From assembly GCF_036365525.1 (NCBI RefSeq), contig NC_090399.1:59180430-59244429 (forward strand): DNA of 64,000 nt, read 5' to 3'. Made by a program: the position numbers and the translations under genes. This DNA comes from Heterodontus francisci. Its lineage: Eukaryota. Below, piece after piece: positions 16,017-57,504 of this stretch. The notes under the pieces are model-generated. The model was not told the DNA's origin and made no database searches. It saw nothing but the letters and a program-made list of their open reading frames with translations. Numbering within the stretch: the stretch's first letter is position 1; each line of letters starts with the position of its first letter.

Positions 16017-19000
16017 CTGTGAAAAAGAAAGATTTCAGTCACACAGTCACTTTACAACATGGNNNNNNNNNNNNNNNNNNNNNNNNNNNNNNNNNNNNNN
16101 NNNNNNNNNNNNNNNNNNNNNNNNNNNNNNNNNNNNNNNNNNNNNNNNNNNNNNNNNNNNNNNNNNNNNNNNNNNNNNNNNNNNNNNNNNNNNNNNNNNN
16201 NNNNNNNNNNNNNNNNNNNNNNNNNNNNNNNNNNNNNNNNNNNNNNNNNNNNNNNNNNNNAGACAAAGTAATGGAGCTATACTGTCTTAACAGACCAGAA
16301 ATGGCTGTTCAGCCAATCGAGTCCATGCCAGAAAGTTCTGCCTCGAAGACAAGGCAGCTAACAACTGAACCAGACTATTGTAATATTTGCACACTTACGA
16401 TTTGCTGAGCTGTAACTGTGTTTATATTCTCCTCCTACAAAGATCAGAAACAGAACTTCAGTTAACAAAAGCTCCCCCACCCACCCCTCACCCACACAAA
16501 CTTACTGTAGTCATGGGGGGAATGACCAGCTTAACCTGAGCTCACTTACAGGAGACTCTGCTCCTCACTCAACCCTTTACTCTGCATTCAGCCCAGTCCC
16601 TTCATCCCCTGTACAGGCCCCCCAGTCCCCTCACTCCCTGTAGGGGACCTCAGTCCCCTGACTCCCCATATGGGCCCTCAGTCACCTCACACCCTGTACG
16701 GGACCTCAGTCCCCTCACCCCCTGTACGGGATCTCAGTCCCCTCACTCCCTGTAGGGGACCTCAGTCCCCTGACTCCCTATATGGGCCCTCAGTCACCTC
16801 ACACCCTGTACGGGACCTCAGTCACCTCACTCCCTGTACGGGATCTCAGTCCCCTCACTCCCTGTACGGGACCTCAGTCCTCTCACTCCCTGTACGGGAC
16901 CTCAGTCACCTCACTCCATGTAAGGGTCCCTCAGTCCCCTGACTCCCCATATAGGCCCTCAGTCACCTCACTCCCTGTACGGGACCTCAGTCCCCTGACT
17001 CCCGATATGGGCCCTCAGTCACCTCACTCCCTGTACAGGCCCCCAGTCCCCTCACTCCCTGTACAGGCCCTCAGTCACCTCACTCCCTGTACAGGCCCCC
17101 AGTCCCCTCACTCCATGTACGGGACCCCCAGTCCCCTCACTCCGTGTAAGAGTCCCTCAGTCCCAGCTCCCCATATGGGCCCTCGGTCCTCTCACTTCCT
17201 GTTCCTCAGCCCCCTCACGCTCTGTACATCACTGGACTGTGTGTGCATTTCCCACATGTGTAGGAAAGTCTCTAATGCTTTGATATTTGTGCTTTAACAT
17301 TTTAAAACTGCTGATACCAGAGAGTGACAGACCCTGCCCTCACTTCCTACCTCTCCTTTTCAACGCAACTGCACCGATGACAACAGCAATCAGAGCGATG
17401 GCAGCAACAACAATTCCAACAATCAGTCTGATATTTGTTCCCTCTGAAGATCCTACAGTCACTGGGAGCATCCTGGCTGTGGGGGGGGGAGGGGGGAAAT
17501 GAGGAGGAGATCAATGAATAACCACAATCGCTGCTCATTCAGAAGCAAGTGTACCAAAGCGGGGCCTGAGTTTGAATGAGATTCAAGTCTGTGATGTAAT
17601 GGGCAGTCTCTGAGCAGAGCATGTTGTAGGTTAGAAAGGTTCAGCATGACTTGGATTACACTCCTGTGAAGCACTTTGGGATGTTTATCTACATTAAAGG
17701 AGATAAATAAATGCAGACATTGGAATTCCACATCATTCCAAAGACACTTCCAGTCACCCAAACAAGTGATTAATTCCCACATCAATCTCAGAATAGGCTT
17801 GTTGCAGCATAGTGATGGGAGGTAGGGAGTTTCTAGGGAAAGGAAAGAGGGGGTGCCATATTGATCAAAGATACTGTTACAGCACTGGAAAGGGGTGACA
17901 TGCTGGAGGATTCAATGTCAGAATCTATTTGGGTAGAGTTAAGGAACAATAGAGGAGCTATTTCATTGCTGGGTGTAAACTATTGGTCACCCCAAATATA
18001 GGGAAGGAGGTCGAGAAGCAAATCTGCAGGTAGATTGCAGAAAGATGTAAGAACTTTAGAATGGTGATAATGGGGGAGTTCAATCATCCTAATATAGACT
18101 GGGATAGTAACAATGTAAAGGCAAAGGTCAGAAAGGAATTCCTGAAATGTATACAAGAGAACTTTATTGATCATTGTGTTTCCAGTTCAATGTGGAAGGA
18201 GGCAGTGTTGGATCTAGTTCTGGGGAATGAAGTAGGGCAAGTGGAGCATGTTTTAATTGGGGTGCATTTGGGAAACAGTGATCACAATATCATCAGGTTT
18301 ACAGTAGTTATGGAAAATGACATGGAACAATTGAACATGAAATTACTCAACTGGAGGAGGGCTAATTTCAGTGAGTTGAAAAGCAGTCGATTGGTTTGAT
18401 AAACATCACTAAAGAGGGTGCTGCTAATTTCACAGTAGAGGAAGAGGTAGTAGAGAAACTGAATAGAATAAAAATTGATAAAGAGGAGGTAGTTAAAAGG
18501 TTGGCAATGCTGAAAGTAGAAAAGTCACTGAGATTACTGAGGGAATTAAAGGTGGAGATATCGGAGGCTGTGGTCACAATCTTGCAATCCTCCTTCGGTA
18601 GTGGGATGGTGCCAGAGGACTGGANNNNNNNNNNNNNNNNNNNNNNNNNNNNNNNNNNNNNNNNNNNNNNNNNNNNNNNNNNNNNNNNNNNNNNNNNNNN
18701 NNNNNNNNNNNNNNNNNNNNNNNNNNNNNNNNNNNNNNNNNNNNNNNNNNNNNNNNNNNNNNNNNNNNNNNNNNNNNNNNNNNACTTCAGTGGTGCGAGA
18801 ATGTTGAGACAACAGGAATAGGAGTAGACCATTCAATCCTTAGAGCCTGTTCTGCCATTCAGTGATATTGAGGGTGATCTGTGTCCTAACTCCATATACC
18901 TCAATAGATTAGCTAGCAAAAAAATCTATTGACCTCAGATCTGAATTTAATTGAGCTAGCATTTACTGCTTTTTATGGAACAGAGTTACACACTTCTCCC

Positions 19001-25000: not shown

Positions 25001-28000
25001 TATGGGCTTTCAGAAGGCATTTGATAAAGTGCCACAAAATAGACTTACTAGTAAAATTGAAGCCAATGGGATTAGAGGGACAGTGTCAGAGTGGATATGG
25101 AATTGGATCAGGGACAGAAATCAGAGAGGAATGGTGAATGATTATTTTTCAGACTGGAAGGAAGTAGAAAGTGAAGGATTGGTATGAGGATCACATCTCT
25201 TTTTGATATATATTAATGATCTGGACTTGGGTATAAGGGCATAAATTCAAGGTGTGCAATGACACAAAACTCAGAAATGCAGTAACCAATGAAGAGGATT
25301 AGAACAGATTTCAGGAGGACATAGACAGACTGGTGAAATGGGCAGACACGTGACAAATGCAGTTTAATGCAGAGAAGTGTTAGGTGATTGATTTTGGAAG
25401 GCAGAATGAGGAGAGGTGATTCTAAACAGTCACTGTTCCTCTTACCCCAGTCTAGGATCTCCATTCCTTCTTTTTCGCTTTGCTCATATTGACAGGAATA
25501 GTTGGCACCATTCTCAGGTGCGATCTGAACCCATCTCCTGAGCTGGTAGGTGCCATCGTGGTTGGGTAGGATGCCAGTGGAACATGTGTCTGCAATCGGT
25601 GCGCCATTTCTCAAGAGGGTGACTTCGATATCGCGAGGGTAAAATCCTGTGACGAGGCAGCAGAGTTGTGTCGGTTTAGCAGCTGATGCCTTGTCCGCGG
25701 AAAGAAACACTTGAGGAGCAACTGAGTAAAACAGATCAGAGGCAGGTCAGTGTAAGAGACAGGGAATGGTAAATATCCCTTTAAATTGGGGATTAGACCC
25801 CTGACCCCAGGGAAAGGTACATACCCCTTTAAACTGGGGTTTAGACACCCTGACTCCAGGTAACAGTACGTACCCCTTTAAACTGGGGTTTAGACCACCG
25901 ACTCTCAGTCACCTCTTCTGACTCACCGACTCTCAGTCCCCCCTTTACTCACCAACACTCAGTCCCTTCCCCCTCAATCACCGACTCTCAGTCCCCCCTC
26001 ACTCACCAACTCTCAGTCCCCCCTCACTCAGAGTCTCAGACCCCCTCACTCAGAGTCTCAGTCCCCCCTCACTCAGAGTCTCAGTCCCCCCCTCACTCGC
26101 TGAGTCTCAGTCCCACCTTACTCGCTGACTTTCAGTCCCCCCTCACTCACTGACTCTCAGTCCCCCCCCCCTCACTAACTGACTCTCAGACCCCCCTCAC
26201 TCACTGACTCTCAGTCCCACCTCATTCACTGACTCTCCCCCCTCCCCCCACCCCCACCCACTCACTCACCGTGTCTCAGTTCCTTTTCTCCAAGTTTCAG
26301 GTACTTCTTCAGCCATTCGATGCAGGTCCCCTCCAGGTAACCCTTCCTCTGCTGGTTCCTGGCCTTGTCCTGGTCCCACTTGTTCTTGGTAATCAGTCCC
26401 CAGCTTACCGGTGTTACCCACACCATGTTATCCTTATCAAAGCTGATGTAATCCCGCCCGTCCCAGCCTTCCTGATGGAACCCGCTGGTGCTCCCGTCAT
26501 CCTGCAGCTCACAGCCATACATCACCTGTACTGTGTGGATCCCTGTCAATCAAACACACACAGCCAATCAGAGCCAAATAACAGAGAGCCAACAGTTCTG
26601 ACTGCCTTCCACAACTGTCAGTGAAACACACACAGCCAAACAGATCCAGGAGCAGAGTGAAGGGGAGGTGGGGGAAAGCCGGGAATGATTGGGAGTTGGT
26701 AAAGAGCTGGTCCTGTCTTTCAGCCCCACAACAAAGTGCATCACTCCACCCAATTCCCGGCTTCTGTTTACTATATAGTGGAGAGACCATTACGGTTGGA
26801 GCGTATGAAACAAAAATTGTGTTTGGAAAATATGTTTGAGATTTTTGAAGAAGTAACTGATAAGATGAATAAGGGGTACCAATGGATGTAGTGTATTTGA
26901 ATTTTCAAAAAGCATTCAATGAGGTGCCATCCAAGAGCTTTTTTCCACTAAATTAGGACTCAAGGCTTTGAGGATTAGTTAAAGGACAGAAAACAGAGAG
27001 TAGGAATAAACGGGTCATCTCCGGGATGGCAGGCTGTAATGAGTTGGGTACCACAGGGATCAGTACTTGGGTCTCAGCTATTTAGGCCCAAGACACAAAA
27101 AGTTCCACAGAGGGATAGGGCAGGTTGAGTGAGTAGGCAAGAACATGTCAGATGAAATACAATGTGGTAAGGTGGCCATTTGGTCTGCATCCATTACTTT
27201 GGAAATGTCCAGCCTCTCGTCTTCATTGGCTAATATCAGTGTCATTTAAAATCAGAATTCTATTGGTCCTGTGAGTACCCGCAAAGATCCTATTGGACCT
27301 AACCATGTGCCTGTCTTTTAGACGCCCGAACGCTATATCTGTTGCTTGTACTGTGATGAAAGTGGAGCCATTGTCTTCTTCATCAAAATGCTCAAGCAAA
27401 AGACATTGTTCAACGCAGTATGGTCAAAAGAAAGTGATTTCATAGCAAAAAAAAAATCAGGAAGGGAGAGGATCAAACACTCTGCATTTTGTACCAAGGT
27501 GATACCAATGTCAGCCACCAAGGAAAGGGAGATGTGGATCAACACATTTTGTTGGAAAAACACAAAGTGAGCACCCAATTTGCAAGTACATCATCATTGA
27601 GGTCTTTTTTTCAAATCATCTGCATCACCTCAAAACAATAAAGTAACTGCTGCTGAACTACAAATGTCTGCCACTCGGTGAAGAATCACCAGTCTTATAG
27701 AAATATCGACTGCAGTACAAGGTGACAAAGAAATCTCCTTCATACCAAGAGACCTGACATGTGGGGAAACAAAGGCAAAAACACTGAGCGAGAAGCTTCA
27801 TGCAGAAGTACTTGGATTGCATTAAAGCAGATGATCTTTTTATTTTCTTTGGCAATTGATGCGTCAAACAAGGGTGAAACAAAATGTTTCCCCTTCGGTT
27901 TGGGATATTTTAATTTCGAGAAGGGGATCCCGCATTTACTGTTGGATTTTTATACTGATAGCCAGGAAACCTGGGAAGCAATCGCAACAGAAAAATGATC

Positions 28001-31000: not shown

Positions 31001-34000
31001 TTTTTAAAGGGCTTCCAACCCTAGATTTCAATTTAAATATTTAAAGAGCGATTGATTTTTAAAAATTAAATAAATTGATCTTGCCCCTCTCCCACCAACC
31101 CCCCCCAATAACCATCGATTAAATTACCAGCCCTCTCCCCCTACAAAACAGTTACCTTGCGCACCTGACCTTCCCCCCACAATGTGCATCAACTTTACAC
31201 TTCACCCCTTCCCCCCCATCCCCTGCACCAATGAGATAACTGTGACCCAACTCCCTCCTCTCCACACAGAGAAACACACCTGCTCCGCCCTCTCCACCAG
31301 TGTTCCGCCTTTAATCCCTGGACGGGGATCCGAAGGTGTGGGATTGCCGGCCACTGACACAAATATCACACCAGGACAGACGGCGGGAGTGTAAAGGGAA
31401 TTTCTTTGTTTATTTAAATTAATTTATGTATTTAAATTGGGCTCCCGACGCCAAGCGGTGGGAGTGCCGCCATGAGGCCTCGTCACCGCCGGCAATATCG
31501 GGCCGGGCCTTCCCGGCATCATGGTCTGTGGTGAGCCTGTCCCTCAGGCATTTTCCGGACTCCCCACATCACGACCCCTGATGTCAGGGGGTCTGTAAAA
31601 TTCTCCCCAGGGGAACAGAAAGACATGAGGAGTGAAGAGAGAAAGAGAGAGAGAAAAACAGGGTGTGGGAAGAAGAGAAAAACTAGGGAGGGTGGGGGAA
31701 CAGTTAGAAATGGGACGGGAAATAGATATGGAGGGGAATAGTGAGACACAGGAGCGGAATAGATCGAGAGACACAGGAGGGGAATAGATAGAGAGACACA
31801 GGAGGGGAAAAGAGAGACACAGGAGGGGAAAAGAGAGACATGGGGAGGGTTCAGAGAGAGACGGTGGGGGGGGGGGGGGGTGGCGTGCGTGGTGGGATAG
31901 TGACACGGGAGTTGAGAAAAACCAGGGGAGTTGGGGGAATAGAAACATACATAGAAACATAGAAAATTGGAGCAGGAGTAGGACATTCGGCCCTTCGAGC
32001 CTTCTCCACCATTCATTATGATCATAGCTGATCGCAGTGGTTAGCACCGCAGCCTCACAGCTCCAGCGACCTGGGTTCAATTCTGGGTACTGCCTGTGTG
32101 AAGTTTGCAAGTTCTCCCTGTGTCTGCGTGGGTTTTCTCCGGGTGCTCCGGTTTCCTCCCACAGCCAATAGACTTGCAGGTTGATAGGTAAATTGGCCAT
32201 TATAAATTGCCCCTAGTATAGGTAGGTGGTAGGGAAATATAGAGACAGGTGGGGGATGTAGTAGAAATATGTATAGGATTAGTATAAATGGGTGGTTAAT
32301 GGTCGGCACAGACTTGGTGGGCCGAAGGGCCTGTTTCAGTGCTGTATATCTAAATCTAAATCTAAATCCAACTCAGTAACCTGGTCCCGCTTTCGCCCCA
32401 TACCCTTTGATCCCTTTAGACCCAAGAGCTATATCTAACTCCTTCTTGAAAACATACTATGTTTTGGCCTCAACTGCTTTCTGTGGTAGTGAATTCCACA
32501 GGCTCACCATTCTCTGGGTGAAGAAAGTTCTCCACATCTCAGTCCTGAAAGGTTCAAGTCCTATTAGAATTTTATAGGTTTCTATGAGATTCTCCCTCAC
32601 TCTTCTGAACTCCAGCGAATATAATCCTTAGCGAATTAATCTTTCCTCATACCTCAGTCCCGCCATCCCAGGAATCAGTCTGTTAAACCTTCGCTGCACT
32701 CCCTCTATAGCAAGAACATCCTTCCTCAGATAAGGAGACCAAAACTGCTCACAATATTTCAGGTGTGGCCTCACCAAGGCCCTGTATAATTGCAACAAGA
32801 CATCCCTGCTTCTGTACTCGAATCCTCTCACTATGAAGGCATGGAGTGTCAAATAGATATGTGGGGGGAATAGAGAGATATGGGAGGGAGGAATAGAGAG
32901 ACATGGGGGTAGAATAAAGACAGATGGAGGAATAGAGAGACATGGGAGGGGATATAGAGAGTTACTGGGGTGAAAATAGAGCAGCAAAGGGGTGAAATAC
33001 AGAGACACGGGGGGCATAGAGAGAGAGAGAGACGGATGGGTGTATAGAGAAACATTGTGGGGGAGGCAGTTGAGAGACTGGGGTCTAATAGAAAGACACC
33101 ATAGTGGAACAGAGAGACTTGGAGGGAATAGAGAGACATGATGGGGTTTGGGGGGGCGGGGGGGGTGGAGGTGGAGGGGTTGGGGGTTGGGAATAGAGAG
33201 ACACTGGGGTGGAGTAGAGAGGCACAGAGTGGTGTAGAGAGAGATGTGGGGGAGGAGGCAATTGAGAGATGGGGGTCCAATAGGGAGACACCTTGGTGGA
33301 AAAGAGAGACTTGGAGGGGAATAGAGAGAGATGGGGGAATAGAGAGACACGGAGAGAGGAATAGAGAGACAGGGTGGTGGAATAGACAAATATGGGAGGG
33401 GGAAATAGACACAACGGTGGGGAATAGAGAGACACAGTGAGGCTTGAATTTAGGAATATGAGACGGTAAATAGACATGAGGAAAATGTAGAGAGAAACAG
33501 TGGTGCGGGAATAGAGAGCATTGTGGGAGGGCAAGGTCTCACCACCCGTCTGGTTGGTCCGGTTTAAGGCGGTCTGAATATTGGTCTGTCCAATGTGCTC
33601 TGAGCTCCGCAGGATCTGTGTCTGCTGTTCCCAGTACTCAGGGCCCTGACTCTCCGCCATCCACTGCTGCCGAGAGATTACTTCCTGAAGATTGCTGTCG
33701 TAGTAATCAATCGTAGCATCGTCCACATAACCGACGGCCACAAACTCTGGCAGACCAGAAATCGGGGTCATTGCCGTGTAGAAATACCGGAGAGAGTGAG
33801 ATCCTGAAACACAGAAAGACATCAGGCATGAACCCCAAAACACCAACCCAACAGAGAGAAAGAGAGAGAGACATCAGGGCATGAACACTAAAACATCAAC
33901 ACCACAGAGAGAGAGAGAGAGAGAGAGAGAGACATCAGGGCATCAACCCCAAATCACCAACCCCACAGAGCGAGTGAGACATCAGAGCATGAACCCCAAA

Positions 34001-37000
34001 ACACAAACCCAACAGAGAGAGAGAGAGAGAGAGAGAGACATCAGGGCATCAACCCCAAAACACCAACCCCACAGAGCGAGAGAGAGAGAGAGAGACATCA
34101 GGGCATCAACCCCAAATCACCAACCCCACAGAGCGAGTGAGACATCAGAGCATGAACCCCAAAACACCAACCCCACAGAGAGAGAGAGAGAGACATCAGG
34201 GCATGAACCCCAAAACACCAACCCCACAGAGCGAGAGAGAGAGAGAGAGACATCAGGGCATCAACCCCAAATCACCAACCCCACAGAGCGAGTGAGACAT
34301 CAGAGCATGAACCCCAAAACAACAACCCCACAGAGAGAGAGAGATCAGGGCATGAACCCCAAAACATCAACCCCACAGAGAGAGAAAGACATCAGGGCAT
34401 GAACCCCAAAACATCAACCCCACAGAGAGAGAGAGAGAGAGAGAGAGACATCAGGGCATGAACCCCAAAACATCAACCCCACACAGAGAGAGAGAGACAT
34501 CAGGGCATGAACCCCAAAACACCAACCCCACAGAGAGAGAGAGAGACATCAGGGCATGAACCCCAAAACAACAACCCCACAGAGAGAGAGAGAGAGATCA
34601 GGGCATGAACCCCAAAACAACAACCCCACAGAGAGAGAGAGATATGGGCATGAACCCCAAAACATCAACCCCACAGAGAGAGAAAGACATCAGGGCATGA
34701 ACCCCAAAACACCAACCCCAGAGAGAGAGAGAGAGAGATCAGGGCATGAACCCCAAAACATCAACCCCACAGAGAGAGAAAGACATCAGGGCATGAACCC
34801 CAAAACAACAACCCCACAGAGAGAGAGAGAGAGATCAGGGCATGAACCCCAAAACATTAACCCCACAGAGAGAGAAAGACATCAGGGCATGAACCCCAAA
34901 TCACCAAACCCACAGAGAGAGAGAGACATCAGGGCATGAACCCCAAAACACCAACCCCACAAAGAGAGAGAGAGAAAGACATCAGGGCATGAACCCCAAA
35001 ATACCAACCCCACAGAGAAAGAGAGACATCAGGGCATGAACCCCAAAACATCAACCCCACAGAGAGAGAGACATCAGGGCGTGAACCCCAAATCACCAAC
35101 CCCACAGAGAAAGAGAGACATCAGGGCATGAACCCCAAAACATCAACCCAACAGAGAGAGAGACATCAGGGCATGAACCCCAAAACACCAACCCCACAGA
35201 GAGAGAAAGAGACATCAGGGCATGAACCCCAAAATACCAACCCCACAGAGAAAGAGAGACATCAGGGCATGAACCCCAAAACACCAACCCCACAGAGAGA
35301 GAGACATCAGGGCATGAACCCCAAAACACCAACCCCACAGAGAGAGAGACATCAGAGCATGAACCCCAAAACATCAACCCCGCAGAGAGAGAGAGAGACA
35401 TCAGGGCATGAACCCCAAAACACCAACCCCAGAGAGAGAGACATCAGGGCATGAACCCCAAAACATCAACCCCACAGAGAGAGAGAGAGACATCAGGGCA
35501 TGAACCCCAAAACACCAACCCCGCAGAGAGAGAGAGAGAGACATCAGGGCATGAACCCCAAAACACCAACCCCAGAGAGAGAGAGAGAGACATCAGGGCA
35601 TGAACCCCAAAACAACAACCCCACAGAGAGAGAGAGAGACATCAGGGCATGAACCCTAAAACACCAACCCCAGAGAGAGAAAGAGAGACATCAGGGCATG
35701 AACCCCAAAACAACAACCCCACAGAGAGAGAGAGAGACATCAGGGCATGAACCCTAAAACACCAACCCCAGAGAGAGAGATAGACATCAGGGCATGAACC
35801 CCAAAACATCAACCCCACAGAGAGAGAGAGAGACATCAGGGCATGAACCCCAAAACATCAACCCCACAGAGAGAGAGAGACATCAGGGCATGAACCCCAA
35901 ATCAACAACCCCACAGAGAGAGAAAGAAATCAGGGCATGAACCCCAAAACATCAACCCCACAGAGAGAGAGAGACATCAGGGCATGAACCCTAAAACATC
36001 AACCCCACAGAGAGAGAAAGAAATCAGGGCATGAACCCCAAATCAACAACCCCACAGAGAGAGAGACATCAGGGCATGAACCCCAAAACATCAACCCCAC
36101 AGAGAGAGAGAGACATCAGGGCACGAACCCCAAAACATCAACCCCACAGAGAGAGAGAGACATCAGGGCATGAACCCCAAAACACCAACCCCACAAAGAG
36201 AGAGAGAGAAAGACATCAGGGCATGAACCCCAAAATACCAACCCCACAGAGAAAGAGAGACATCAGGGCATGAACCCCAAATCACCAACCCCACAGAGAA
36301 AGAGAGACATCAGGGCATGAACCCCAAAACATCAACCCCACAGAGAAAGAAAGAAATCAGGGCATGAACCCCAAATCAACAACCCCACAGAGAGAGAGAC
36401 ATCAGGGCTGGAACCCCAAAACATCAACCTCACAGAGAGAGAGAGAGACATCAGGGCATGAACCCCAAATCAACAACCCCACAGAGAGAGAGACATCAGG
36501 GCATGAACCCCAAAACATCAACCCCACAGAGAGAGAAAGACATCAGGGCATGAACCCCAAATCAACAACCCCACAGAGAGAGAGACATCAGGGCATGAAC
36601 CCCAAAACATCAACCCCACAGAGAGAGAGAGAGAGAGACATCAGGGCATGAACCCCAAAACATCAACCCCACAGAGAGAGAGAGAGAGAGAGACATCAGG
36701 GCATGAACCCCAAAACACCAACCCCAGAGAGAGAGAGAGAGACATCAGGGCATGAACCCCAAAACACCAACCCCACAGAGAGAGAGAGAGAGAGAGACAT
36801 CAGGGCATGAACCCCAAAACACCAACCCCACAGAGAGAGAGAGAGAGAGACATCAGGGCATGAACCCCAAAACAACAACCCCACAGAGAAAGAGAGATCA
36901 GGGCATGAACCCCAAAACATCAACCCCACAGAGAGAGAAAGACATCAGGGCATGAACCCCAAAACATCAACCCCACACAGAGAGAGAGATCAGGGCATGA

Positions 37001-40000
37001 AACCCAAAACATCAACCCCACAGAGAGAGAGAGAGAGAGACATCAGGGCATGAACCCCAAAACACCAACCCCACAGAGAGAGAGAGAGACATCAGGGCAT
37101 GAACCCCAAAACACCAACCCCAGAGAGAGAGAGAGAGACATCAGGGCATGAACCCCAAAACAACAACCCCACAGAGAGAGAGAGAGAGATCAGGGCATGA
37201 ACCCCAAAACATCAACCCCACAGAGAGAGAAAGACATCAGGGCATGAACCCCAAAACATTAACCCCACAGAGAGAGAAAGACATCAGGGCATGATCCCAA
37301 ATCACCAAACCCACAGAGAGAGAGAGACATCAGGGCATGAACCCCGAAACACCAACCCCACAAAGAGAGAGAGAGAAAGACATCAGGGCATGAACCCCAA
37401 AATACCAACCCCACAGAGAAAGAGAGACATCAGGGCATGAACCCCAAAACATCAACCCCACAGAGAGAGAGACATCAGGGCGTGAACCCCAAATCACCAA
37501 CCCCACAGAGAAAGAGAGACATCAGGGCATGAACCCCAAAACATCAACCCCACAGAGAGAGAGACATCAGGGCATGAACCCCAAAACACCAACCCCACAG
37601 AGAGAAAGAGACATCAGGGCATGAACCCCAAAATACCGACCCCACAGAGAAAGAGAGACATCAGGGCATGAACCCCAAAACATCAACCCCACAGAGAGAG
37701 AGACATCAGGGCATGAACCCCAAAACACCAACCCCACAGAGAGACAGAGAGACATCAGGGCATGAACCCCAAAACACCAACCCCAGAGAGAGAGAGAGAG
37801 ACATCAGGGCATGAACCCCAAAACATCAACCCCACAGAGAGAGAGAGAGACATCAGGGCATGAACCCCAAAACACCAACCCCGCAGAGAGAGAGAGAGAG
37901 AGACATCAGGGCATGAACCCCAAAACACCAACCCCAGAGAGAGAGAGAGAGACATCAGGGCATGAACCCCAAAACAACAACCCCACAGAGAGAGAGAGAG
38001 ACATCAGGGCATGAACCCTAAAACACCAACCCCAGAGAGAGAAAGAGAGACATCAGGGCATGAACCCCAAAACAACAACCCCACAGAGAGAGAGAGAGAC
38101 ATCAGGGCATGAACCCTAAAACACCAACCCCAGAGAGAGAGATAGACATCAGGGCATGAACCCCAAAACATCAACCCCACAGAGAGAGAGAGAGAGAGAT
38201 CAGGGCATGAACCCTAAAACACCAACCCCAGAGAGAGAGATAGACATCAGGGCATGAACCCCAAAACATCAACCCCACAGAGAGAGAGAGAGAGACATCA
38301 GGGCATGAACCCTAAAACACCAACCCCAGAGAGAGAGATAGACATCAGGGCATGAACCCCAAAACATCAACCCCACAGAGAGAGAGAGAGACATCAGGGC
38401 ATGAACCCTAAAACACCAACCCCAGAGAGAGAGAGAGACATCAGGGCATGAACCCCAAAACAACAACCCCACAGAGAGAGAGAGAGATCAGGGCATGAAC
38501 CCCAAAACATCAACCCCACAGAGAGAGAAAGACATCAGGGCATGAACCCCAAAACACCAACCCCACAGAGAGAGAGATAGACATCAGGGCATGAACCCCA
38601 AAACATCAACCCCACAGAGAGAGAGAGACATCAGGGCATGAACCCCAAAACACCAACCCCACAGAGAGAGAGATAGACATCAGGGCATGAACCCCAAAAC
38701 ATCAACCCCACAGAGAGAGAGAGAGACATCAGGGCAGGAACCCCAAAACAACAACCCCACAGAGAGAGAGAGAGAGAGATCAGGGCATGAACCCCAAAAC
38801 ACCAACCCCACAGAGAGAGAGAGAGACATCAGGGCATGAACCCCAAAACATCAACCCCACAGAGAAAGAGAGAGACATCAGGGCATGAACCCCAAATCAC
38901 CAACCCCACAGAGAGAGAGAGAGATCAGGGCATGAACCCCAAAACACCAACCCCACAGAGAGAGACATCAGGGCATGAACCCCAAAACATCAACCCCACA
39001 GAGAGAGAGAGAGAGACATCAGGGCATGATCCCCAAAACACCAACCCCACAGAGAGAGAGAGAGACATCAGGGCATGAACCCCAAAACATCAACCCCACA
39101 GAGAGAGAGAGAGACACATCAGGGCATGAACCCCAAAACATCAACCCCACAGAGAGAGAGAGACATCAGGGCATGAACCCCAAAACATCAACCCCAGAGA
39201 GAGAGAGAGAGAGAGACATCAGGGCATGAACCCCAAAACATCAACCCCACAGAGAGAGAGAGAGACATCAGGGCACGAACCCCAAAACATCAACCCCACA
39301 GAGAGAGAGAGAGAGACATCAGGGCATGAACCCCAAAACATCAACCCCACAGAGAGAGAGAGAGACATCAGGGCATGAACCCTAAAACACCAACCCCAGA
39401 GAGAGAGATAGACATCAGGGCATGAACCCCAAAACATCAACCCCACAGAGAGAGAGAGAGAGACATCAGGGCATGAACCCCAAAACATCAACCCCACAGA
39501 GAGAGAGAGAGACATCAGGGCATGAACCCCAAAACATCAGCCCCACAGAGAGAGAGAGAGAGACATCAGGGCATGAACCCTAAAACACCAACCCCAGAGA
39601 GAGAGAGAGAGACATCAGGGCATGAACCCCAAAACAACAACCCCACAGAGAGAGAGAGATCAGGGCATGAACCCCAAAACATCAACCCCACAGAGAGAGA
39701 GAGAGAGACATCAGGGCATGAACCCCAAAACAACAACCCCACAGAGAGAGAGAGAGAGATCAGGGCATGAACCCCAAAACATCAACCCCACAGAGAGAGA
39801 GACATCAGGGCATGAACCCCAAAACACCAACCCCACAGAGAGAGAGAGAGACATCAGGGCATGAACCCCAAAACATAAACCCCGCAGAGAGAGAGAGAGA
39901 CATCAGGGCATGAACCCCAAAACACCAACCCCAGAGAGAGAGAGACATCAGGGCATGAACCCCAAAACATCAACCCCACAGAGTGAGAGAGAGACATCAG

Positions 40001-43000
40001 GGCATGAACCCCAAAACACCAACCCCGCAGAGAGAGAGAGAGAGAGACATCAGGGCATGAACCCCAAAACACCAACCCCAGAGAGAGAGAGAGAGACATC
40101 AGGGCATGAACCCCAAAACAACAACCCCACAGAGAAAGAGAGACATCAGGGCATGAACCCTAAAACACCAACCCCAGAGAGAGAGATAGACATCAGGGCA
40201 TGAACCCCAAAACATCAACCCCACAGAGAGAGAGAGAGAGAGATCAGGGCATGAACCCTAAAACACCAACCCCAGAGAGAGAGATAGACATCAGGGCATG
40301 AACCCCAAAACATCAACCCCACAGAGAGAGAGAGAGAGAGATCAGGGCATGAACCCTAAAACACCGACCCCAGAGAGAGAGATAGACATCAGGGCATGAA
40401 CCCCAAAACATCAACCCCACAGAGAGAGAGAGAGACATCAGGGCATGAACCCTAAAACACCAACCCCAGAGAGAGAGATAGACATCAGGGCATGAACCCC
40501 AAAACATCAACCCCACAGAGAGAGAGAGAGAGACATCAGGGCATGAACCCCAAAACATCAACCCCACAGAGAGAGAGAGAGACATCAGGGCATGAACCCT
40601 AAAACACCAACCCCAGAGAGAGAGAGAGACATCAGGGCATGAACCCCGAAACACCAACCCCACAAAGAGAGAGAGAGAAAGACATCAGGGCGTGAACCCC
40701 AAATCACCAACCCCACAGAGAAAGAGAGACATCAGGGCATGAACCCCAAAACATCAACCCCACAGAGAGAGAGACATCAGGGCATGAACCCCAAAACACC
40801 AACCCCACAGAGAGAAAGAGACATCAGGGCATGAACCCCAAAATACCAACCCCACAGAGAAAGAGAGACATCAGGGCATGAACCCCAAAACATCAACCCC
40901 ACAGAGAGAGAGACATCAGGGCATGAACCCCAAAACACCAACCCCACAGAGAGAGAGAGAGACATCAGGGCATGAACCCCAAAACACCAACCCCAGAGAG
41001 AGAGAGAGAGACATCAGGGCATGAACCCCAAAACATCAACCCCACAGAGAGAGAGAGAGACATCAGGGCATGAACCCCAAAACACCAACCCCGCAGAGAG
41101 AGAGAGAGAGACATCAGGGCATGAACCCCAAAACACCAACCCCAGAGAGAGAGAGAGAGACATCAGGGCATGAACCCCAAAACAACAACCCCACAGAGAG
41201 AGAGAGAGACATCAGGGCATGAACCCTAAAACACCAACCCCAGAGAGAGAAAGAGAGACATCAGGGCATGAACCCCAAAACAACAACCCCACAGAGAGAG
41301 AGAGAGACATCAGGGCATGAACCCTAAAACACCAACCCCAGAGAGAGAGATAGACATCAGGGCATGAACCCCAAAACATCAACCCCACAGAGAGAGAGAG
41401 AGAGAGATCAGGGCATGAACCCTAAAACACCAACCCCAGAGAGAGAGATAGACATCAGGGCATGAACCCCAAAACATCAACCCCACAGAGAGAGAGAGAG
41501 AGAGACATCAGGGCATGAACCCTAAAACACCAACCCCAGAGAGAGAGATAGACATCAGGGCATGAACCCCAAAACATCAACCCCACAGAGAGAGAGAGAG
41601 ACATCAGGGCATGAACCCTAAAACACCAACCCCAGAGAGAGAGAGAGACATCAGGGCATGAACCCCAAAACAACAACCCCACAGAGAGAGAGAGAGATCA
41701 GGGCATGAACCCCAAAACATCAACCCCACAGAGAGAGAAAGACATCAGGGCATGAACCCCAAAACACCAACCCCACAGAGAGAGAGATAGACATCAGGGC
41801 ATGAACCCCAAAACATCAACCCCACAGAGAGAGAGAGACATCAGGGCATGAACCCCAAAACACCAACCCCACAGAGAGAGAGATAGACATCAGGGCATGA
41901 ACCCCAAAACATCAACCCCACAGAGAGAGAGAGAGACATCAGGGCAGGAACCCCAAAACAACAACCCCACAGAGAGAGAGAGAGAGAGATCAGGGCATGA
42001 ACCCCAAAACACCAACCCCACAGAGAGAGAGAGAGACATCAGGGCATGAACCCCAAAACATCAACCCCACAGAGAAAGAGAGAGACATCAGGGCATGAAC
42101 CCCAAATCACCAACCCCACAGAGAGAGAGAGAGATCAGGGCATGAACCCCAAAACACCAACCCCACAGAGAGAGACATCAGGGCATGAACCCCAAAACAT
42201 CAACCCCACAGAGAGAGAGAGAGAGACATCAGGGCATGATCCCCAAAACACCAACCCCACAGAGAGAGAGAGAGACATCAGGGCATGAACCCCAAAACAT
42301 CAACCCCACAGAGAGAGAGAGAGACACATCAGGGCATGAACCCCAAAACATCAACCCCACAGAGAGAGAGAGACATCAGGGCATGAACCCCAAAACATCA
42401 ACCCCAGAGAGAGAGAGAGAGACATCAGGGCATGAACCCCAAAACATCAACCCCACAGAGAGAGAGAGAGACATCAGGGCACGAACCCCAAAACATCAAC
42501 CCCACAGAGAGAGAGAGAGAGACATCAGGGCATGAACCCCAAAACATCAACCCCACAGAGAGAGAGAGAGACATCAGGGCATGAACCCTAAAACACCAAC
42601 CCCAGAGAGAGAGATAGACATCAGGGCATGAACCCCAAAACATCAACCCCACAGAGAGAGAGAGAGAGACATCAGGGCATGAACCCCAAAACATCAACCC
42701 CACAGAGAGAGAGAGAGACATCAGGGCATGAACCCCAAAACATCAACCCCACAGAGAGAGAGAGAGAGACATCAGGGCATGAACCCTAAAACACCAACCC
42801 CAGAGAGAGAGAGAGAGACATCAGGGCATGAACCCCAAAACAACAACCCCACAGAGAGAGAGAGATCAGGGCATGAACCCCAAAACATCAACCCCACAGA
42901 GAGAGAGAGAGAGACATCAGGGCATGAACCCCAAAACAACAACCCCACAGAGAGAGAGAGAGAGATCAGGGCATGAACCCCAAAACATCAACCCCACAGA

Positions 43001-46000
43001 GAGAGAGACATCAGGGCATGAACCCCAAAACACCAACCCCACAGAGAGAGAGAGAGACATCAGGGCATGAACCCCAAAACATAAACCCCGCAGAGAGAGA
43101 GAGAGACATCAGGGCATGAACCCCAAAACACCAACCCCAGAGAGAGAGAGACATCAGGGCATGAACCCCAAAACATCAACCCCACAGAGTGAGAGAGAGA
43201 CATCAGGGCATGAACCCCAAAACACCAACCCCGCAGAGAGAGAGAGACATCAGGGCATGAACCCCAAAACACCAACCCCAGAGAGAGAGAGAGAGACATC
43301 AGGGCATGAACCCCAAAACAACAACCCCACAGAGAGAGAGAGACATCAGGGCATGAACCCTAAAACACCAACCCCAGAGAGAGAGATAGACATCAGGGCA
43401 TGAACCCCAAAACATCAACCCCACAGAGAGAGAGAGAGAGAGATCAGGGCATGAACCCTAAAACACCAACCCCAGAGAGAGAGATAGACATCAGGGCATG
43501 AACCCCAAAACATCAACCCCACAGAGAGAGAGAGAGAGAGATCAGGGCATGAACCCTAAAACACCGACCCCAGAGAGAGAGATAGACATCAGGGCATGAA
43601 CCCCAAAACATCAACCCCACAGAGAGAGAGAGAGACATCAGGGCATGAACCCTAAAACACCAACCCCAGAGAGAGAGATAGACATCAGGGCATGAACCCC
43701 AAAACATCAACCCCACAGAGAGAGAGAGAGAGACATCAGGGCATGAACCCCAAAACATCAACCCCACAGAGAGAGAGAGAGACATCAGGGCATGAACCCT
43801 AAAACACCAACCCCAGAGAGAGAGAGAGACATCAGGGCATGAACCCCGAAACACCAACCCCACAAAGAGAGAGAGAGAAAGACATCAGGGCATGAACCCC
43901 AAAATACCAACCCCACAGAGAAAGAGAGACATCAGGGCATGAACCCCAAAACATCAACCCCACAGAGAGAGAGACATCAGGGCGTGAACCCCAAATCACC
44001 AACCCCACAGAGAAAGAGAGACATCAGGGCATGAACCCCAAAACATCAACCCCACAGAGAGAGAGACATCAGGGCATGAACCCCAAAACACCAACCCCAC
44101 AGAGAGAGAAAGAGACATCAGGGCATGAACCCCAAAATACCAACCCCACAGAGAAAGAGAGACATCAGGGCATGAACCCCAAAACATCAACCCCACAGAG
44201 AGAGAGACATCAGGGCATGAACCCCAAAACACCAACCCCACAGAGAGAGAGAGAGACATCAGGGCATGAACCCCAAAACACCAACCCCAGAGAGAGAGAG
44301 AGAGACATCAGGGCATGAACCCCAAAACATCAACCCCACAGAGAGAGAGAGAGACATCAGGGCATGAACCCCAAAACACCAACCCCGCAGAGAGAGAGAG
44401 AGAGACATCAGGGCATGAACCCCAAAACACCAACCCCAGAGAGAGAGAGAGAGACATCAGGGCATGAACCCCAAAACAACAACCCCACAGAGAGAGAGAG
44501 AGACATCAGGGCATGAACCCTAAAACACCAACCCCAGAGAGAGAAAGAGAGACATCAGGGCATGAACCCCAAAACAACAACCCCACAGAGAGAGAGAGAG
44601 ACATCAGGGCATGAACCCTAAAACACCAACCCCAGAGAGAGAGATAGACATCAGGGCATGAACCCCAAAACATCAACCCCACAGAGAGAGAGAGAGAGAG
44701 ATCAGGGCATGAACCCTAAAACACCAACCCCAGAGAGAGAGATAGACATCAGGGCATGAACCCCAAAACATCAGCCCCACAGAGAGAGAGAGAGAGACAT
44801 CAGGGCATGAACCCCAAAACATCAACCCCACAGAGAGAGAGAGAGACATCAGGGCATGAACCCTAAAACACCAACCCCAGAGAGAGAGATAGACATCAGG
44901 GCATGAACCCCAAAACATCAACCCCACAGAGAGAGAGAGAGACATCAGGGCATGAACCCTAAAACACCAACCCCAGAGAGAGAGAGAGACATCAGGGCAT
45001 GAACCCCAAAACAACAACCCCACAGAGAGAGAGAGAGATCAGGGCATGAACCCCAAAACATCAACCCCACAGAGAGAGAAAGACATCAGGGCATGAACCC
45101 CAAAACACCAACCCCACAGAGAGAGAGATAGACATCAGGGCATGAACCCCAAAACATCAACCCCACAGAGAGAGAGAGACATCAGGGCATGAACCCCAAA
45201 ACACCAACCCCACAGAGAGAGAGATAGACATCAGGGCATGAACCCCAAAACATCAACCCCACAGAGAGAGAGAGAGACATCAGGGCAGGAACCCCAAAAC
45301 AACAACCCCACAGAGAGAGAGAGAGAGAGATCAGGGCATGAACCCCAAAACACCAACCCCACAGAGAGAGAGAGAGACATCAGGGCATGAACCCCAAAAC
45401 ATCAACCCCACAGAGAGAGAGAGAGACATCAGGGCATGAACCCCAAATCACCAACCCCACAGAGAGAGAGAGAGATCAGGGCATGAACCCCAAAACACCA
45501 ACCCCACAGAGAGAGACATCAGGGCATGAACCCCAAAACATCAACCCCACAGAGAGAGAGAGAGAGACATCAGGGCATGATCCCCAAAACACCAACCCCA
45601 CAGAGAGACAGAGAGACATCAGGGCATGAACCCCAAAACATCAACCCCACAGAGAGAGAGAGAGACACATCAGGGCATGAACCCCAAAACATCAACCCCA
45701 CAGAGAGAGAGAGACATCAGGGCATGAACCCCAAAACATCAACCCCAGAGAGAGAGAGAGAGAGAGACATCAGGGCATGAACCCCAAAACATCAACCCCA
45801 CAGAGAGAGAGAGAGACATCAGGGCACGAACCCCAAAACATCAACCCCACAGAGAGAGAGAGAGAGACATCAGGGCATGAACCCCAAAACATCAACCCCA
45901 CAGAGAGAGAGAGAGACATCAGGGCATGAACCCTAAAACACCAACCCCAGAGAGAGAGATAGACATCAGGGCATGAACCCCAAAACATCAACCCCACAGA

Positions 46001-49000
46001 GAGAGAGAGAGAGACATCAGGGCATGAACCCCAAAACATCAACCCCACAGAGAGAGAGAGAGACATCAGGGCATGAACCCCAAAACATCAACCCCACAGA
46101 GAGAGAGAGAGAGACATCAGGGCATGAACCCTAAAACACCAACCCCAGAGAGAGAGAGAGAGACATCAGGGCATGAACCCCAAAACAACAACCCCACAGA
46201 GAGAGAGAGATCAGGGCATGAACCCCAAAACATCAACCCCACAGAGAGAGAGAGAGAGACATCAGGGCATGAACCCCAAAACAACAACCCCACAGAGAGA
46301 GAGAGAGAGATCAGGGCATGAACCCCAAAACATCAACCCCACAGAGAGAGAGACATCAGGGCATGAACCCCAAAACACCAACCCCACAGAGAGAGAGAGA
46401 GACATCAGGGCATGAACCCCAAAACATAAACCCCGCAGAGAGAGAGAGAGACATCAGGGCATGAACCCCAAAACGCCAACCCCAGAGAGAGAGAGACATC
46501 AGGGCATGAACCCCAAAACATCAACCCCACAGAGTGAGAGAGAGACATCAGGGCATGAACCCCAAAACACCAACCCCGCAGAGAGAGAGAGAGAGAGACA
46601 TCAGGGCATGAACCCCAAAACACCAACCCCAGAGAGAGAGAGAGAGACATCAGGGCATGAACCCCAAAACAACAACCCCACAGAGAGAGAGAGACATCAG
46701 GGCATGAACCCTAAAACACCAACCCCAGAGAGAGAGATAGACATCAGGGCATGAACCCCAAAACATCAACCCCACAGAGAGAGAGAGAGAGAGATCAGGG
46801 CATGAACCCTAAAACACCAACCCCAGAGAGAGAGATAGACATCAGGGCATGAACCCCAAAACATCAACCCCACAGAGAGAGAGAGAGAGAGAGAGATCAG
46901 GGCATGAACCCTAAAACACCGACCCCAGAGAGAGAGATAGACATCAGGGCATGAACCCCAAAACATCAACCCCACAGAGAGAGAGAGAGACATCAGGGCA
47001 TGAACCCTAAAACACCAACCCCAGAGAGAGAGATAGACATCAGGGCATGAACCCCAAAACATCAACCCCACAGAGAGAGAGAGAGAGACATCAGGGCATG
47101 AACCCCAAAACATCAACCCCACAGAGAGAGAGAGAGACATCAGGGCATGAACCCTAAAACACCAACCCCAGAGAGAGAGAGAGACATCAGGGCATGAACC
47201 CCAAAACAACAACCCCACAGAGAGAGAGAGATAGAGATCAGGGCATGAACCCCAAAACATCAACCCCACAGAGAGAGAAAGACATCAGGGCATGAACCCC
47301 AAAACACCAACCCCACAGAGAGAGATAGACATCAGGGCATGAACCCCAAAACATCAACCCCACAGAGAGAGAGAGAGACATCAGGGCATGAACCCCAAAA
47401 CAACAACCCCACAGAGAGAGAGAGAGAGAGAGATCAGGGCATGAACCCCAAAACATCAACCCCACAGAGAGAGAGAGAGACATCAGGGCATGAACCCCAA
47501 ATCACCAACCCCACAGAGAGAGAGAGAGATCAGGGCATGAACCCCAAAACACCAACCCCACAGAGAGAGAGAGAGAGAGATCAGGGCATGAACCCCAAAA
47601 CACCAACCCCACAGAGAGAGACATCAGGGCATGAACCCCAAAACATCAACCCCACAGAGAGAGAGAGAGAGACATCAGGGCATGAACCCCATAACACCAA
47701 CCCCACAGAGAGAGAGAGAGACATCAGGGCATGAACCCCAAAACATCAACCCCACAGAGAGAGAGAGAGACACATCAGGGCATGAACCCCAAAACATCAA
47801 CCCCACAGAGAGAGAGAGACATCAGGGCATGAACCCCAAAACATCAACCCCAGAGAGAGAGAGAGAGAGAGACATCAGGGCATGAACCCCAAAACATCAA
47901 CCCCACAGAGAGAGAGAGAGACATCAGGGCACGAACCCCAAAACATCAACCCCACAGAGAGAGAGAGAGAGACATCAGGACATGAACCCCAAAACATCAA
48001 CCCCAGAGAGAGAGAGACATCAGGGCATGAACCCCAAAACATCAACCCCACAGAGAGAGAGAGAGACATCAGGGCATGAACCTCAAAACACCAACCCCAG
48101 AGAGAGAGAGAGAGAGAGAGAGAGACATCAGGGCATGAACCCCAAAACATCAAGGCCACAGAGAGCGACAGAGGGACATCAGGAGATGAACCCCAAATCC
48201 TCAACTGCGCGCACACACAGACACCCCATCTCCCACAGATATCAGAGCATAAAGCCTAAAACAGCAATGCCATACATATATAGAGAGTGACATCAGGGCA
48301 AGAAGCCCAAACACAAAACCCACAGTGACAGTATATGAACCCAAAGATGCATCCAAGCAACACAAAATAGAGCCCATATGAATAAACACCAACACAACAC
48401 AGAGCCCCTGTAAATAAACCCCAACACAACACCGAGCCCCTGGAAATAAACACCAACACAACACAGAGCCCCTGTAAATAAACCCCAACACAACACAGAG
48501 CCCCTGGAAATAAACACCGACACAACACAACATAGAGGCCCTGTAAATAAACCCCAACACAACACAGAGCCCCTGGAAATAAACACCCACACAACACAAC
48601 ATAGAGCCCCTGTAAATAAACACCAACACAACACAGAGCCCCTGGAAATAAACACCAACACAACACAGAGCCCCTATAAATAAACACCAACACAACACAG
48701 AGCCCCTGTAAATAAACACCAACACAACACAGAGCCCCTGTAAATAAACCCCAATAAAACACAGAGCCCCTATAAATAAACCCCAACATAACACAGAGCC
48801 CCTGGAAATTAACATCAATACAACACAGAGCCCCTGTAAATAAACACCAACACAACACAGAGCCCCTGTAAATAAATCCCAATAAAACACAGAGCCCCTA
48901 TAAATAAACACCAACACAAAACAGAGCCCCTGGAAATAAACCCCAACACAACACAGAGCCCCTATAAATAAACCCCAGCACTACACAGAGCCCCTGTAAT

Positions 49001-52000
49001 TATACCCCAACACAACACAGAGCCCCTATAAATAAACCCCAACATAACACATAGCCCCTGGAAATTAACACCAATGCAACACAGAGCCCCTGTAAATAAA
49101 CACCAACACAACACAGAGCCCCTGGAAATAAACCCCAATAAAACACAGAGCCCCTATAAATAAACACCAACACAAAACAGAGCCCCTGGAAATAAACCCC
49201 AACACAACACAGAGCCCTTATAAATAAACCCCAGCACAACACAGAGCCCCTATAAATAAACCCCAACATAACACAGAGCCCCTGGAAATTAACACCAATA
49301 CAACACAGAGCCCCTGTAAATAAACCCCAACACAACACAGAGCCCCTGTAAATAAACACAACACAACACAGAGCCCCTGTAAATAAACACCAACACAAAA
49401 CAGAGCCCCTGTAAATAAACCCCAGCACAACACAGAGCCCCTATAAATAAACACCAACACAACACAGAGCCCCTGTAAATAAACCCCAGCACAACACAGA
49501 GCCCCTGTAAATAAACCCCAATAAAACACAGAGCCCCTGGAAATTAACACCAATACAACACAGAGCCCCTGTAAATTATCACAACACAACACAGAGCCCC
49601 TGTAAATAAACACAACACAACACAGAGCCCCTGTAAATAAACACCAACACAACACAGAGCCCCTGTAAATAAACCCCAGCACAACACAGAGCCCCTGTAA
49701 ATAAACCCCAATAAAACACAGAGCCCCTATAAATAAACCCCAACACAACACAGAGCCCCTATAAATAAACCCCAGCACAACACAGAGCCCCTGGAAATAA
49801 ACACAACACAACACAGAGCCCCTGTAAATAAACACCAACACAAAACAGAGCCACTGGAAATAAACACCAACACAAAACAGAGCCCCTGGAAATAAACCCC
49901 AACACAACACAGAGCCCCTATAAATAAACACAACACAACACAGAGCCCCTGTAAATAAACACAACACAACACAGAGCCCCTGTAAATAAACACAACACAA
50001 CACACAGCCCCTGTAAATAAACACAACACAACACGGAGCCCCTGTAAATAAACACCAACACAACACAGAGCCCCTGGAAATAAACCCCAGCACAACACAG
50101 AGCCCCTGTAAATAAACCCCAACACAACACAGAGCCTCTGTAAATAAACACCAACACAACACAGAGCCCCTGTAAATAAACCCCAGCACAACACAGAGCC
50201 CCTGTAAATAAACCCCAACACAACACAGAGCCTCTGTAAATAAATCCCAACACAACACAGAGCCCCTGTAAATAAACACCAACATAACAAAGAGCCCCAG
50301 GAAATAAACACCAACACAACACAGAGCCCCTGGAAATAAACCCCAACACAACACAGAGCCCCTATAAATAAACCCCAGCACAACACAGAGCCCCTATAAA
50401 TAAACCCCAACATAACACAGAGCCCCTGGAAATAAACACCAACACAACACAGAGCCCCTGGAAATGAACACCAACACAACACAGAGCCCCTATAAATAAA
50501 CACCAACACAACACAGAGCCCCTGGAAATGAACACCAACACAACACAGAGCCCCTATAAATAAACCCCAACACAACACAGAGCCCCTGTAAATAAACACC
50601 AACACAACACATGGTCCCTGTAACTAAACCTCAACACAACAGAGCATCCTGTAAATAAAACCCAATATAACTCAGAGCCTCTGTAAATAAACCAGTACAC
50701 ATCACAGAGGGCCTGTAAATAAACCCCAACACAACACAACACAACACAATACAGAGCCCCTGTTATCCATAGGGGTGGATTTATGCTCCAGCTGAACAGA
50801 GCTTTGGCTAGAGCACATCTGGAGAGCTGTGTTTAGTTCTGAACACTGCACCTCTGGAATGATCTATTTGTGCTTGGAGTGGGTACAGGGCAGATTGTTT
50901 GGGTTCAGGACAAATTGCTTAGATTTGGCTCATATTCTCTCGAGTTTAGAAGATTAAAGGGTGAATTATTGAAGTGATTAAAATGTTACAAGAATTTGAT
51001 AGAATAGATACAGCAAAACTACTTCCTGATTGGGGGAATGACGAATATGGGGATATAGTCTTCACATTGGAGCTATGCCGTTCAGGGGTGATGTCAAGAA
51101 AGACTTCTTCACACAAAGGCCAGTGGAAATTTGGAAATCGCTCGATCAAAAGGCTCTGGATGCTGGGGATCAATTGGAGTTTTCAAAATGAGAGATATTT
51201 GTTCACTAAGGGTATCAAGGGATAATGGAGCAAAGCTGGGAAACAACAAGAACTTGTATTTATATAGTGCCTGTGACATTACACAATATCCCAAAGTGCT
51301 TCACAGGGGCATTACAAAACAAAATATGACAGAGGGCCACATCAGGAGATATTAGAACAGCGGATCAAAAGCTTGGTTAAAGAGGTAGGTTTTCAGGTGT
51401 GTCTTAAAGGAGGAAAGTGAGTGAGAGAGGTGGAGAGGTGTAGGGAGGGAATTCCAGAGCCTGAGGCCTTGTCAATCAAAGGTAAGGGCACCAATGGTGG
51501 AACGTTTAAAATCAGGGATGTTCCAGAGGCCAGAATTAGAGCAGTACAGATATCTCAGAGGGTTGTGGAACCGGAGGGTGTTACAGAGGTTGGAAGGGAC
51601 GAGGCCATGGAGGGATTTGAAAATATGGATGAGAATTTTCAAATTGATATTTGTTTAACTGGGTGCGAGTGTAGGTCAGTGAGCACAGGGGTGATGGGTG
51701 AATGGGATTTGGTGCAAGTTAGGAAATGGGCAGCAAGGTTTTGGATGACCGCAAGGTTACAGAGGGTAGAATGTGAGAGGCAAGTCAGGAGTGTGTTAGA
51801 ATAGTGATGTCTGAAAGTAACAAAGACATGGATGAGGTTTCAGCAGCAGAAGAGCTGAGAGAGGGTGATATTACAGAGGTGGAAATGGTAAATGAAGTTG
51901 AGGTACAAATCAATTATGATCAAATACAAATGCTGTTGCTATCGTTCTCTCTCTCTATCTCCATTCTGCAATCCCATGTCCCTCACTCCCCCTAAAGTCT

Positions 52001-57480: not shown

Positions 57481-57504
57481 TCAGTGGAAATATTCTTTTT
57501 ATGT

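Follow-up and report, generated by a model that had tools for sequence, protein, structure and literature searches.

The class I gene and the array in its first intron

The window analyzed here is a stretch of 64,000 nucleotides from the shark Heterodontus francisci (NC_090399.1, positions 59,180,430 to 59,244,429). Its gene lies on the minus strand and encodes a major histocompatibility complex (MHC) class I alpha chain, recognized by the Pfam families MHC_I and C1-set; in-frame leader, alpha1, alpha2 and C1-set alpha3 exons and a likely transmembrane exon are present. Intron 1 extends from 33804 to 52193 (18,390 nt, GT..AG ends), and its 3' part, ahead of exon 2, is a 14.4-kb tandem array of a unit that resembles the 3' splice site itself. 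The features on which the analysis is based are as follows.

52194..52242, minus strand: coding part of exon 1 (leader peptide), from sequence, with the donor GT at 52193 and a match to the loose contig end at the exon-2 acceptor
33543..33803, minus strand: exon 2, alpha1 domain (Pfam PF00129, E=1.7e-21; best PDB match 6lup_A, E=4.8e-29; contigs)
26270..26542, minus strand: exon 3, alpha2 domain (Pfam, sequence, contigs)
25446..25721, minus strand: exon 4, alpha3 (C1-set) domain (Pfam, sequence)
17351..17476, minus strand: likely transmembrane exon, read from sequence alone
33813..48197, minus strand: minisatellite array of about 295 units of 43-61 bp, each with a G/T-rich core plus a (TC)n tract
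33804..33846, minus strand: terminal unit, which acts as the 3' splice site of intron 1 and has a pyrimidine tract, a CAG and a candidate branch A at 33822, from sequence and from exon-1 joints in contigs of the runs X2, X3 and X4

Tandem Repeats Finder (TRF) called the array at 34081-48197 (period 49, 289 copies) plus 33813-34297, and parsing resolved it into 295 units of 43-61 bp with 90 distinct unit sequences. A preliminary description, made from the letters of the window, had reported an amplified-unit array in front of exon 2, and both methods agreed with it on the length of 14.4 kb. It had also named the last unit as the real acceptor. The terminal unit matches the array consensus apart from a 1-nt deletion, a shortened tract and its TTTCAG end, and contigs join exon 1 there, which bears this out. 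The consensus unit contains no AG, as described, and the arrays called by TRF end 2-19 nt before the AG. The repeated unit corresponds to roughly the final 45 bases of intron 1 without their AG. The donor of exon 2 lies 261 nt downstream of the terminal acceptor, and only the last unit combines a strong tract, an AG and such a donor.

The preliminary description placed the branch point at the A of CTGAT at -19, and counting back from the acceptor confirmed that this A is position 33822. It is a candidate branch point only, as the commonest unit holds three yUnAy motifs. Shuffled versions of the commonest unit contain at least one such motif in 55% of cases and three in 1% (P=0.01). Diverged paralogues retain CTGAT or TTGAT at their acceptors, while TTCAT is sometimes lost, which favors the A chosen originally. 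The usual branch distance in a human catalogue is 19-37 nt, as given there (PMC10078293).

Splicing at the terminal unit

Exon 2 is held by assembled contigs of four runs from one sample, guessed to be RNA (none is on record as RNA). The results showed that contigs of X2, X3 and X4 leave the genome at the acceptor (33803) and continue into exon-1 sequence, that is, in three of the four runs, and that contigs of all four runs leave at the exon-2 donor into exon 3. In X2 and X3 a 591-nt contig runs across exons 1-3 with no difference from the exon 2 of the window. This exon-2 sequence was found only in the genes with 185, 204 and 296 units, which means that the terminal unit is used for splicing in at least one gene with a long array. 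Exon 2 and the exon-1 region are identical in these three genes, and the transcript is not assignable to the window's own copy. Unspliced contigs cross the acceptor as well as the exon-2 donor. No joint to a decoy AG at 33889 was listed within 33805-33900, where contigs show presence and not absence. These likely-RNA contigs indicate normal splicing at the authentic site.

Growth of the array and its spread among paralogues

The length of the unit changes in steps of 2 through the (TC)n tract, as expected from slippage. On a larger scale, higher-order repeats of 66-69 units (about 3.2 kb) were found, with peaks of unit identity at lags 66, 69 and 135, and the array contains a 934-nt exact duplicate 3,210 nt apart; together the lag peaks and the duplicate reveal block duplication, as expected from unequal exchange. 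The interior is homogenized, as seen from the higher-order repeats and an array-specific diagnostic site, and divergent last units are common to the paralogues. Slippage and unequal exchange would therefore be the likely means by which the array grows and shrinks.

A search of the genome for alpha1 sequence returned 37 class I loci, 7 of which were inspected over 3 kb only. The acceptor motif is recognizable at 23 of the 37, down to about 40% amino-acid identity, in 1 to more than 1,160 units. Nine near-identical genes, with 98-100% alpha1 identity, carry 52, 58, 59, 81, 91, 185, 204, 217 and 296 units, which reveals an unstable copy number. L010 has 1,199 units (54 kb) vs 14 in its sister L011, and L017 and L018 have at least 1,163 and at least 1,157 units vs 1-26 in the relatives of their group; the array lengths of L017, L018 and L025 are lower bounds, their ends lying beyond the sequence covered. 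Arrays of at least 50 units occur in three separate gene groups of the alpha1 tree (starred support, deep branches weak), a distribution that repeated growth and repeated loss of arrays would fit alike. Where a gene has 1-2 terminal units, another small cluster is often seen further upstream, or a tail resembling a long interspersed element (LINE) beside the acceptor.

The near-identical set comprises nine or ten genes whose alpha1, alpha2 and alpha3 are all 98-100% identical (G000:C29:57.4-62.8 Mb, C815, C1655 and C1290), and copies on unplaced contigs may be haplotype duplicates. The classical shark class Ia gene (UAA) is a single polymorphic gene next to TAP/PSMB. A set of nine or ten almost identical genes, some 6 Mb away from the TAP-like ones, would rather point to a non-classical cluster. 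For elasmobranchs, class I genes that occur in several copies close to TAP, on the same chromosome, have been described in a paper whose main text contains no 'intron' and one unrelated 'repeat' (PMC10751288).

Distribution of the unit in the genome

In the 6.0-Gb assembly an exact 32-mer of the unit matches 1,743 times, 767 times forward and 976 times in reverse; diverged copies elsewhere would escape such a count. All 1,743 were placed, at 15 sites, on C29 (the MHC chromosome) or on three unplaced contigs. Intron 1 of class I genes accounts for 914 of them (13 regions), an unplaced contig of 40.7 kb that is all array for 231, and an array of 98.6 kb before a TAP-like gene for 598. A genome-wide dispersed satellite, named at the outset as part of what would refute the proposal, was rejected by this accounting. 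The preliminary description had asked for a check whether the unit is limited to class I loci; it is not, as the largest copy is the 2,260 units before the TAP-like gene. The unit is MHC-local, neither genome-wide nor strictly confined to class I introns.

The 98.6-kb array (G000:C29:65681500-65780200; L079-L081, L090-L097, L107) ends 113 nt before the ATG of the TAP-like gene, and ABC_membrane exons lie 20-24 kb downstream on the same strand. The first exon behind it matched no Pfam family and no PDB entry. From the ABC_membrane exons, together with an apparent likeness to TAP2, this is likely a TAP gene. The array ends in TTTCAG, which could be an acceptor; the same letters also read as what we take to be an interferon-response element beside a GC box. 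Further ABC_membrane exon pairs were seen at 65129076-65315466 and 65657677-65661099 of G000:C29, which suggests three TAP-like genes in the class I region.

This copy speaks for a mobile satellite local to the MHC, which either came first and supplied the acceptor or acts on class I and TAP genes at the DNA level (chromatin, recombination), its likeness to a splice site being incidental. The second upstream cluster or LINE-like tail of the genes with 1-2 units would allow an ancestral short array as well. Against this, every other placed copy ends at, or sits in the intron before, a class I exon 2, and in L010, L017, L018 and L020 the terminal unit has the same state at the diagnostic C/T site as the array to which it belongs. 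We regard such a satellite as very unlikely.

AG content of the array

There are 46 AGs in the array region, 40 of which belong to TTTTAG (39 TTTTAGGG plus the one at 33889).

35657..47155, minus strand: 39 TTTTAGGG variant units, weak AG decoys, whose use would bring in a stop after 4 codons

Among the variants of the window TTTTAG ranks second in abundance (41 of 294 units), and the 39 TTTTAGGG units are largely copies made by block duplication, not 39 mutations. As decoys they are weak, since they lie 34-36 nt from the branch motif, have 9-10 pyrimidines in -20..-4 vs 12 at the real acceptor and meet a stop after four codons. The preliminary description stated that this variant has no GTRAG donor downstream. 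One GTGAG does exist in the array, at 36433, and lies 1,586 nt from the nearest upstream TTTTAG, so the statement holds in practice and a pseudo-exon from TTTTAG to an internal donor was rejected.

It had also been proposed, as one possibility, that the array was shaped by avoidance of AG. We counted the types of AG-making substitution among units of 38-65 bp, outside the (TC)n tract, and found no depletion in the window, where 5 of 16 AG-making types were seen vs 34 of 83 others (p=0.58). The corresponding figures are 10/16 vs 52/83 in the nine-gene group, 11/16 vs 64/83 in L010, 15/18 vs 72/93 in L017/18 and 13/14 vs 68/79 in the array before the TAP-like gene. By abundance, a deficit of AG gain appeared in L010 only (one-sided p=0.03, uncorrected), the other five sets giving 0.17-0.99. 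Units carrying AG make up 15% in the window vs 8% in the array before the TAP-like gene. No YAG unit occurs among the last 40 units of L010, L017 and L018, and the array before the TAP-like gene shows the same. These results do not support an AG-depleted decoy array; the unit's stop just short of the AG may be survivorship, as arrays with a strong AG would cost more.

Two class I genes near TAP, L012 and L013 (G000:C29, about 66.35 and 66.70-66.72 Mb), provide a different case. Their intron 1 holds a separate 137-bp unit that includes a complete real acceptor plus a degenerate piece of exon 2, in 15 and 136 copies. An unchanged AG is present in 11 of 14 units of L012 and in 119 of 136 of L013. 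All three possible changes at the G of this AG are present in L012, among 12 distinct variants in 137 columns (P about 2e-5, assuming that columns mutate alike), and in L013 17 units differ at the G of the acceptor AG vs 0-3 at ten other AG G's. The A of the AG is unchanged in both arrays, which share ancestry, and context mutability is an alternative cause. The preferential change of the G suggests that splicing-related selection likely acts on strong decoys.

This erosion also counts in favor of a curated field of AG-less decoys, in which selection against AG gain would be continuing. That the unit stops short of the AG, the p=0.03 of L010 and the lack of YAG in the last 40 units of three arrays agree with it, though for the last the TAP-side array is no different. 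The absence of depletion in the window, the nine-gene group and L017/18, the high rank of TTTTAG, the 35 TTTACAG in a 32-bp array of the same intron and the AG kept in most complete acceptor copies of L013 all speak against it. Such a field is largely refuted for the array of the window and seems scarcely probable overall. As a reasonable synthesis, strong AG decoys are likely counter-selected and weak or AG-less ones tolerated.

Tandem arrays at other acceptors

To compare exon types, we surveyed arrays with a period of at least 15 and a length of at least 100 nt by the distance from array end to AG. At a distance of up to 40 nt, 20 of 30 alpha1, 7 of 28 alpha3, 2 of 28 alpha2 and 9 of 29 C1-set acceptors had such an array, vs none of 27 Sushi and none of 22 ABC acceptors. 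Within 20 nt the counts were 18/30 for alpha1, 0/28 for alpha3, 1/28 for alpha2, and 0/27, 0/22 and 0/29 for Sushi, ABC and C1-set. The survey left out L115 and L149 (contig end) and, as no acceptor was called, L138, L168, L170, L186, L197, 8 of 30 ABC loci and 1 of 30 C1-set loci; some Sushi calls (L171, L173, L182) are probably inside one long exon. The 18 alpha1 cases are related duplicates of two unit types and thus represent few independent events, and alpha1 array cases overall involve four unit types, mostly duplicates of one another. A 26-32-bp unit and a 71-bp unit also abut alpha1 acceptors.

The clustering at alpha1 acceptors can be read as support for a length-tunable brake, in which the copies would bind SF1, U2AF or PTBP1 or slow the polymerase, and the number of units would set splicing efficiency and class I dose. 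A human precedent is the donor-containing variable number tandem repeat (VNTR) of ABCA7, of at most some 427 units; in the account given, repeat length is associated with mis-splicing and reduced expression (PMC5954066). Splicing-associated repeats are described as common in humans (PMC10078293). The weak AG-gain deficit of L010 also fits. A brake is harder to reconcile with the clean spliced contigs that the gene type with 185-296 units gives in every junction-bridging run, with a copy number that spans three orders of magnitude between sister genes, and with the position of the biggest array at a promoter-like site before the TAP-like gene. On balance we think it unlikely.

Other repeats of the locus

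Intron 1 and its borders contain two further repeats.

48358..50738, minus strand: second intron-1 array, 32-bp unit, 74 copies, 79 AG, 35 TTTACAG
52017..52193, minus strand: 64-bp repeat, 2.7 copies, reiterating the exon-1 donor region

Shared ancestry of the 32-bp and 49-bp units was rejected, as their alignment score of 26 compares with a shuffle mean of 22.8 (P=0.27). The 26-32-bp unit that forms the 48358-50738 array also lies before the class I exon-2 acceptor of L025, where its TTTACAG-bearing copies extend over at least 40 kb (at least 1,261 units; G000:C29:66994100-67034036). The 49-bp array was likewise examined as a G-quadruplex array, since G4 runs had been assigned to the unit. 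This did not hold: no canonical match to four G3+ runs was found with loops of up to 7 or 12 nt, and G4Hunter reached a maximum of 1.56, with 14% of windows at 1.2 or above.

Elsewhere in the window, a 49-bp unit stands in 2.8 copies before the alpha3 acceptor (25760-25896) and, as a 48-bp array, fills at least 17 kb of intron 3 in L010 (L088/L109), whose alpha3 match lies 44 kb after alpha2. GTGAGTGAG-rich 25-bp repeats follow the exon-3 donor (25896-26237). Three more arrays, with units of 55, 33 and 37 bp, occupy most of the 10 kb that precede the promoter (53640-64000), and their length varies among the nine near-identical paralogues. On another chromosome, a family of C1-set exons (L250-L259, G000:C8:117-125 Mb) shows, at 9 of 10 loci, a 21-bp array that stops 36-42 nt short of the acceptor AG. 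Some 44% of the window is tandem array. This agrees with reports that simple tandem repeats are more abundant on the smaller chromosomes of sharks (PMC10620051; bioRxiv 2025.06.08.657570).

Discussion

Exon definition and AG scanning are established knowledge in splice-site choice. Against this background, we consider the array to be quite probably a tolerated minisatellite seeded from an acceptor, in which exon definition would single out the terminal unit, as no other combines a strong tract and an AG with a donor close by. The preliminary description had offered a tolerated expansion shaped by AG avoidance as one option; the lack of AG-gain depletion, the spread of copy number and the use of the terminal acceptor in contigs fit tolerance, without support for AG avoidance. 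Since strong tract, AG and donor (261 nt downstream) come together in the last unit alone, exon definition would choose it at any copy number; this is likely why the array is tolerated, and the array would be nearly neutral.

Several observations weigh against this reading. The commonest unit holds more yUnAy motifs than shuffling would lead one to expect; AG-making variants are rarer per type in L010, in one of six sets and uncorrected; the G erosion of L012 and L013 points to selection of a kind that a wholly neutral array would lack; and the concentration of acceptor-adjacent arrays at alpha1 is a site preference that tolerance leaves unexplained. The RNA evidence is one guessed-RNA sample in the form of contigs, without power for rates, rare joints or paralogue levels.

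The arrangement was at first thought to be without any description. This was too strong, as minisatellites at splice junctions, acceptor-side ones included, have been published, and those described splice normally (PMC3087553, PMC1557585). The amphioxus 'mirage' minisatellites, of Adh3 and of the globin BflGb6 (acceptor-side, 3-6 units of 150-160 bp, normal splicing), are, as characterized there, tandem copies of an intron 3' end with a terminal authentic site, unstable length, a homogenized interior, divergent boundary units and normal splicing (PMC3087553), all of which the shark array shares. Mirage units cross the boundary and in most cases include the AG, whereas the shark unit stops short of it and so does not fit the junction-spanning definition of a mirage; the copy number is also far apart, about 295 here and more than 1,100 in paralogues vs 3-6 in amphioxus (PMC3087553). 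The 137-bp arrays of L012 and L013 do fit that definition (PMC3087553).

In humans, junction minisatellites have been described in F7 intron 7 (37 bp, 5-9 copies), IFI6/6-16, CBS intron 13, LMNB2 and PDGF (PMC1557585). As in the shark, the repeat reiterates a splice signal and the pseudo-sites are mostly silent, but the human examples are donor-side as described and have 5-25 copies (PMC1557585). The ABCA7 intron 18 VNTR (25 bp, 12-427 units) is also kilobase-scale, includes a splice signal and abuts an exon, but is donor-side and has a measured effect of length on splicing and expression according to its report (PMC5954066). In mainly non-subscription literature, supplements (where intron repeats might appear) being outside the scope, we found no published AG-less acceptor array of such size, nor one in shark class I genes. 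The array of the window is best read as an AG-less, very large variant of the known junction minisatellites.

A bolder proposal would be that class I genes repeatedly amplify their exon-2 acceptor, that the number of units tunes the output of otherwise identical paralogues, that the copy at the TAP-like promoter couples transporter and class I dose, and that selection erodes the AG only in strong arrays of complete acceptors. We think this combination quite improbable.

Neutral or not, these loci form an unusually clean natural experiment on the choice of 3' splice sites. In nine genes the exons are nearly identical and the acceptor is the same, the main difference being 52 to 296 upstream copies of branch motif and tract; relatives have more than 1,100, and two paralogues have complete copies that bear the AG. 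The family shows how much decoy sequence exon definition can absorb. In practice, arrays of this kind can disrupt the assembly of MHC genes of sharks from short reads, and their annotation. If it were true that array length sets class I or TAP output, this would be a new, fast-evolving control of antigen presentation.

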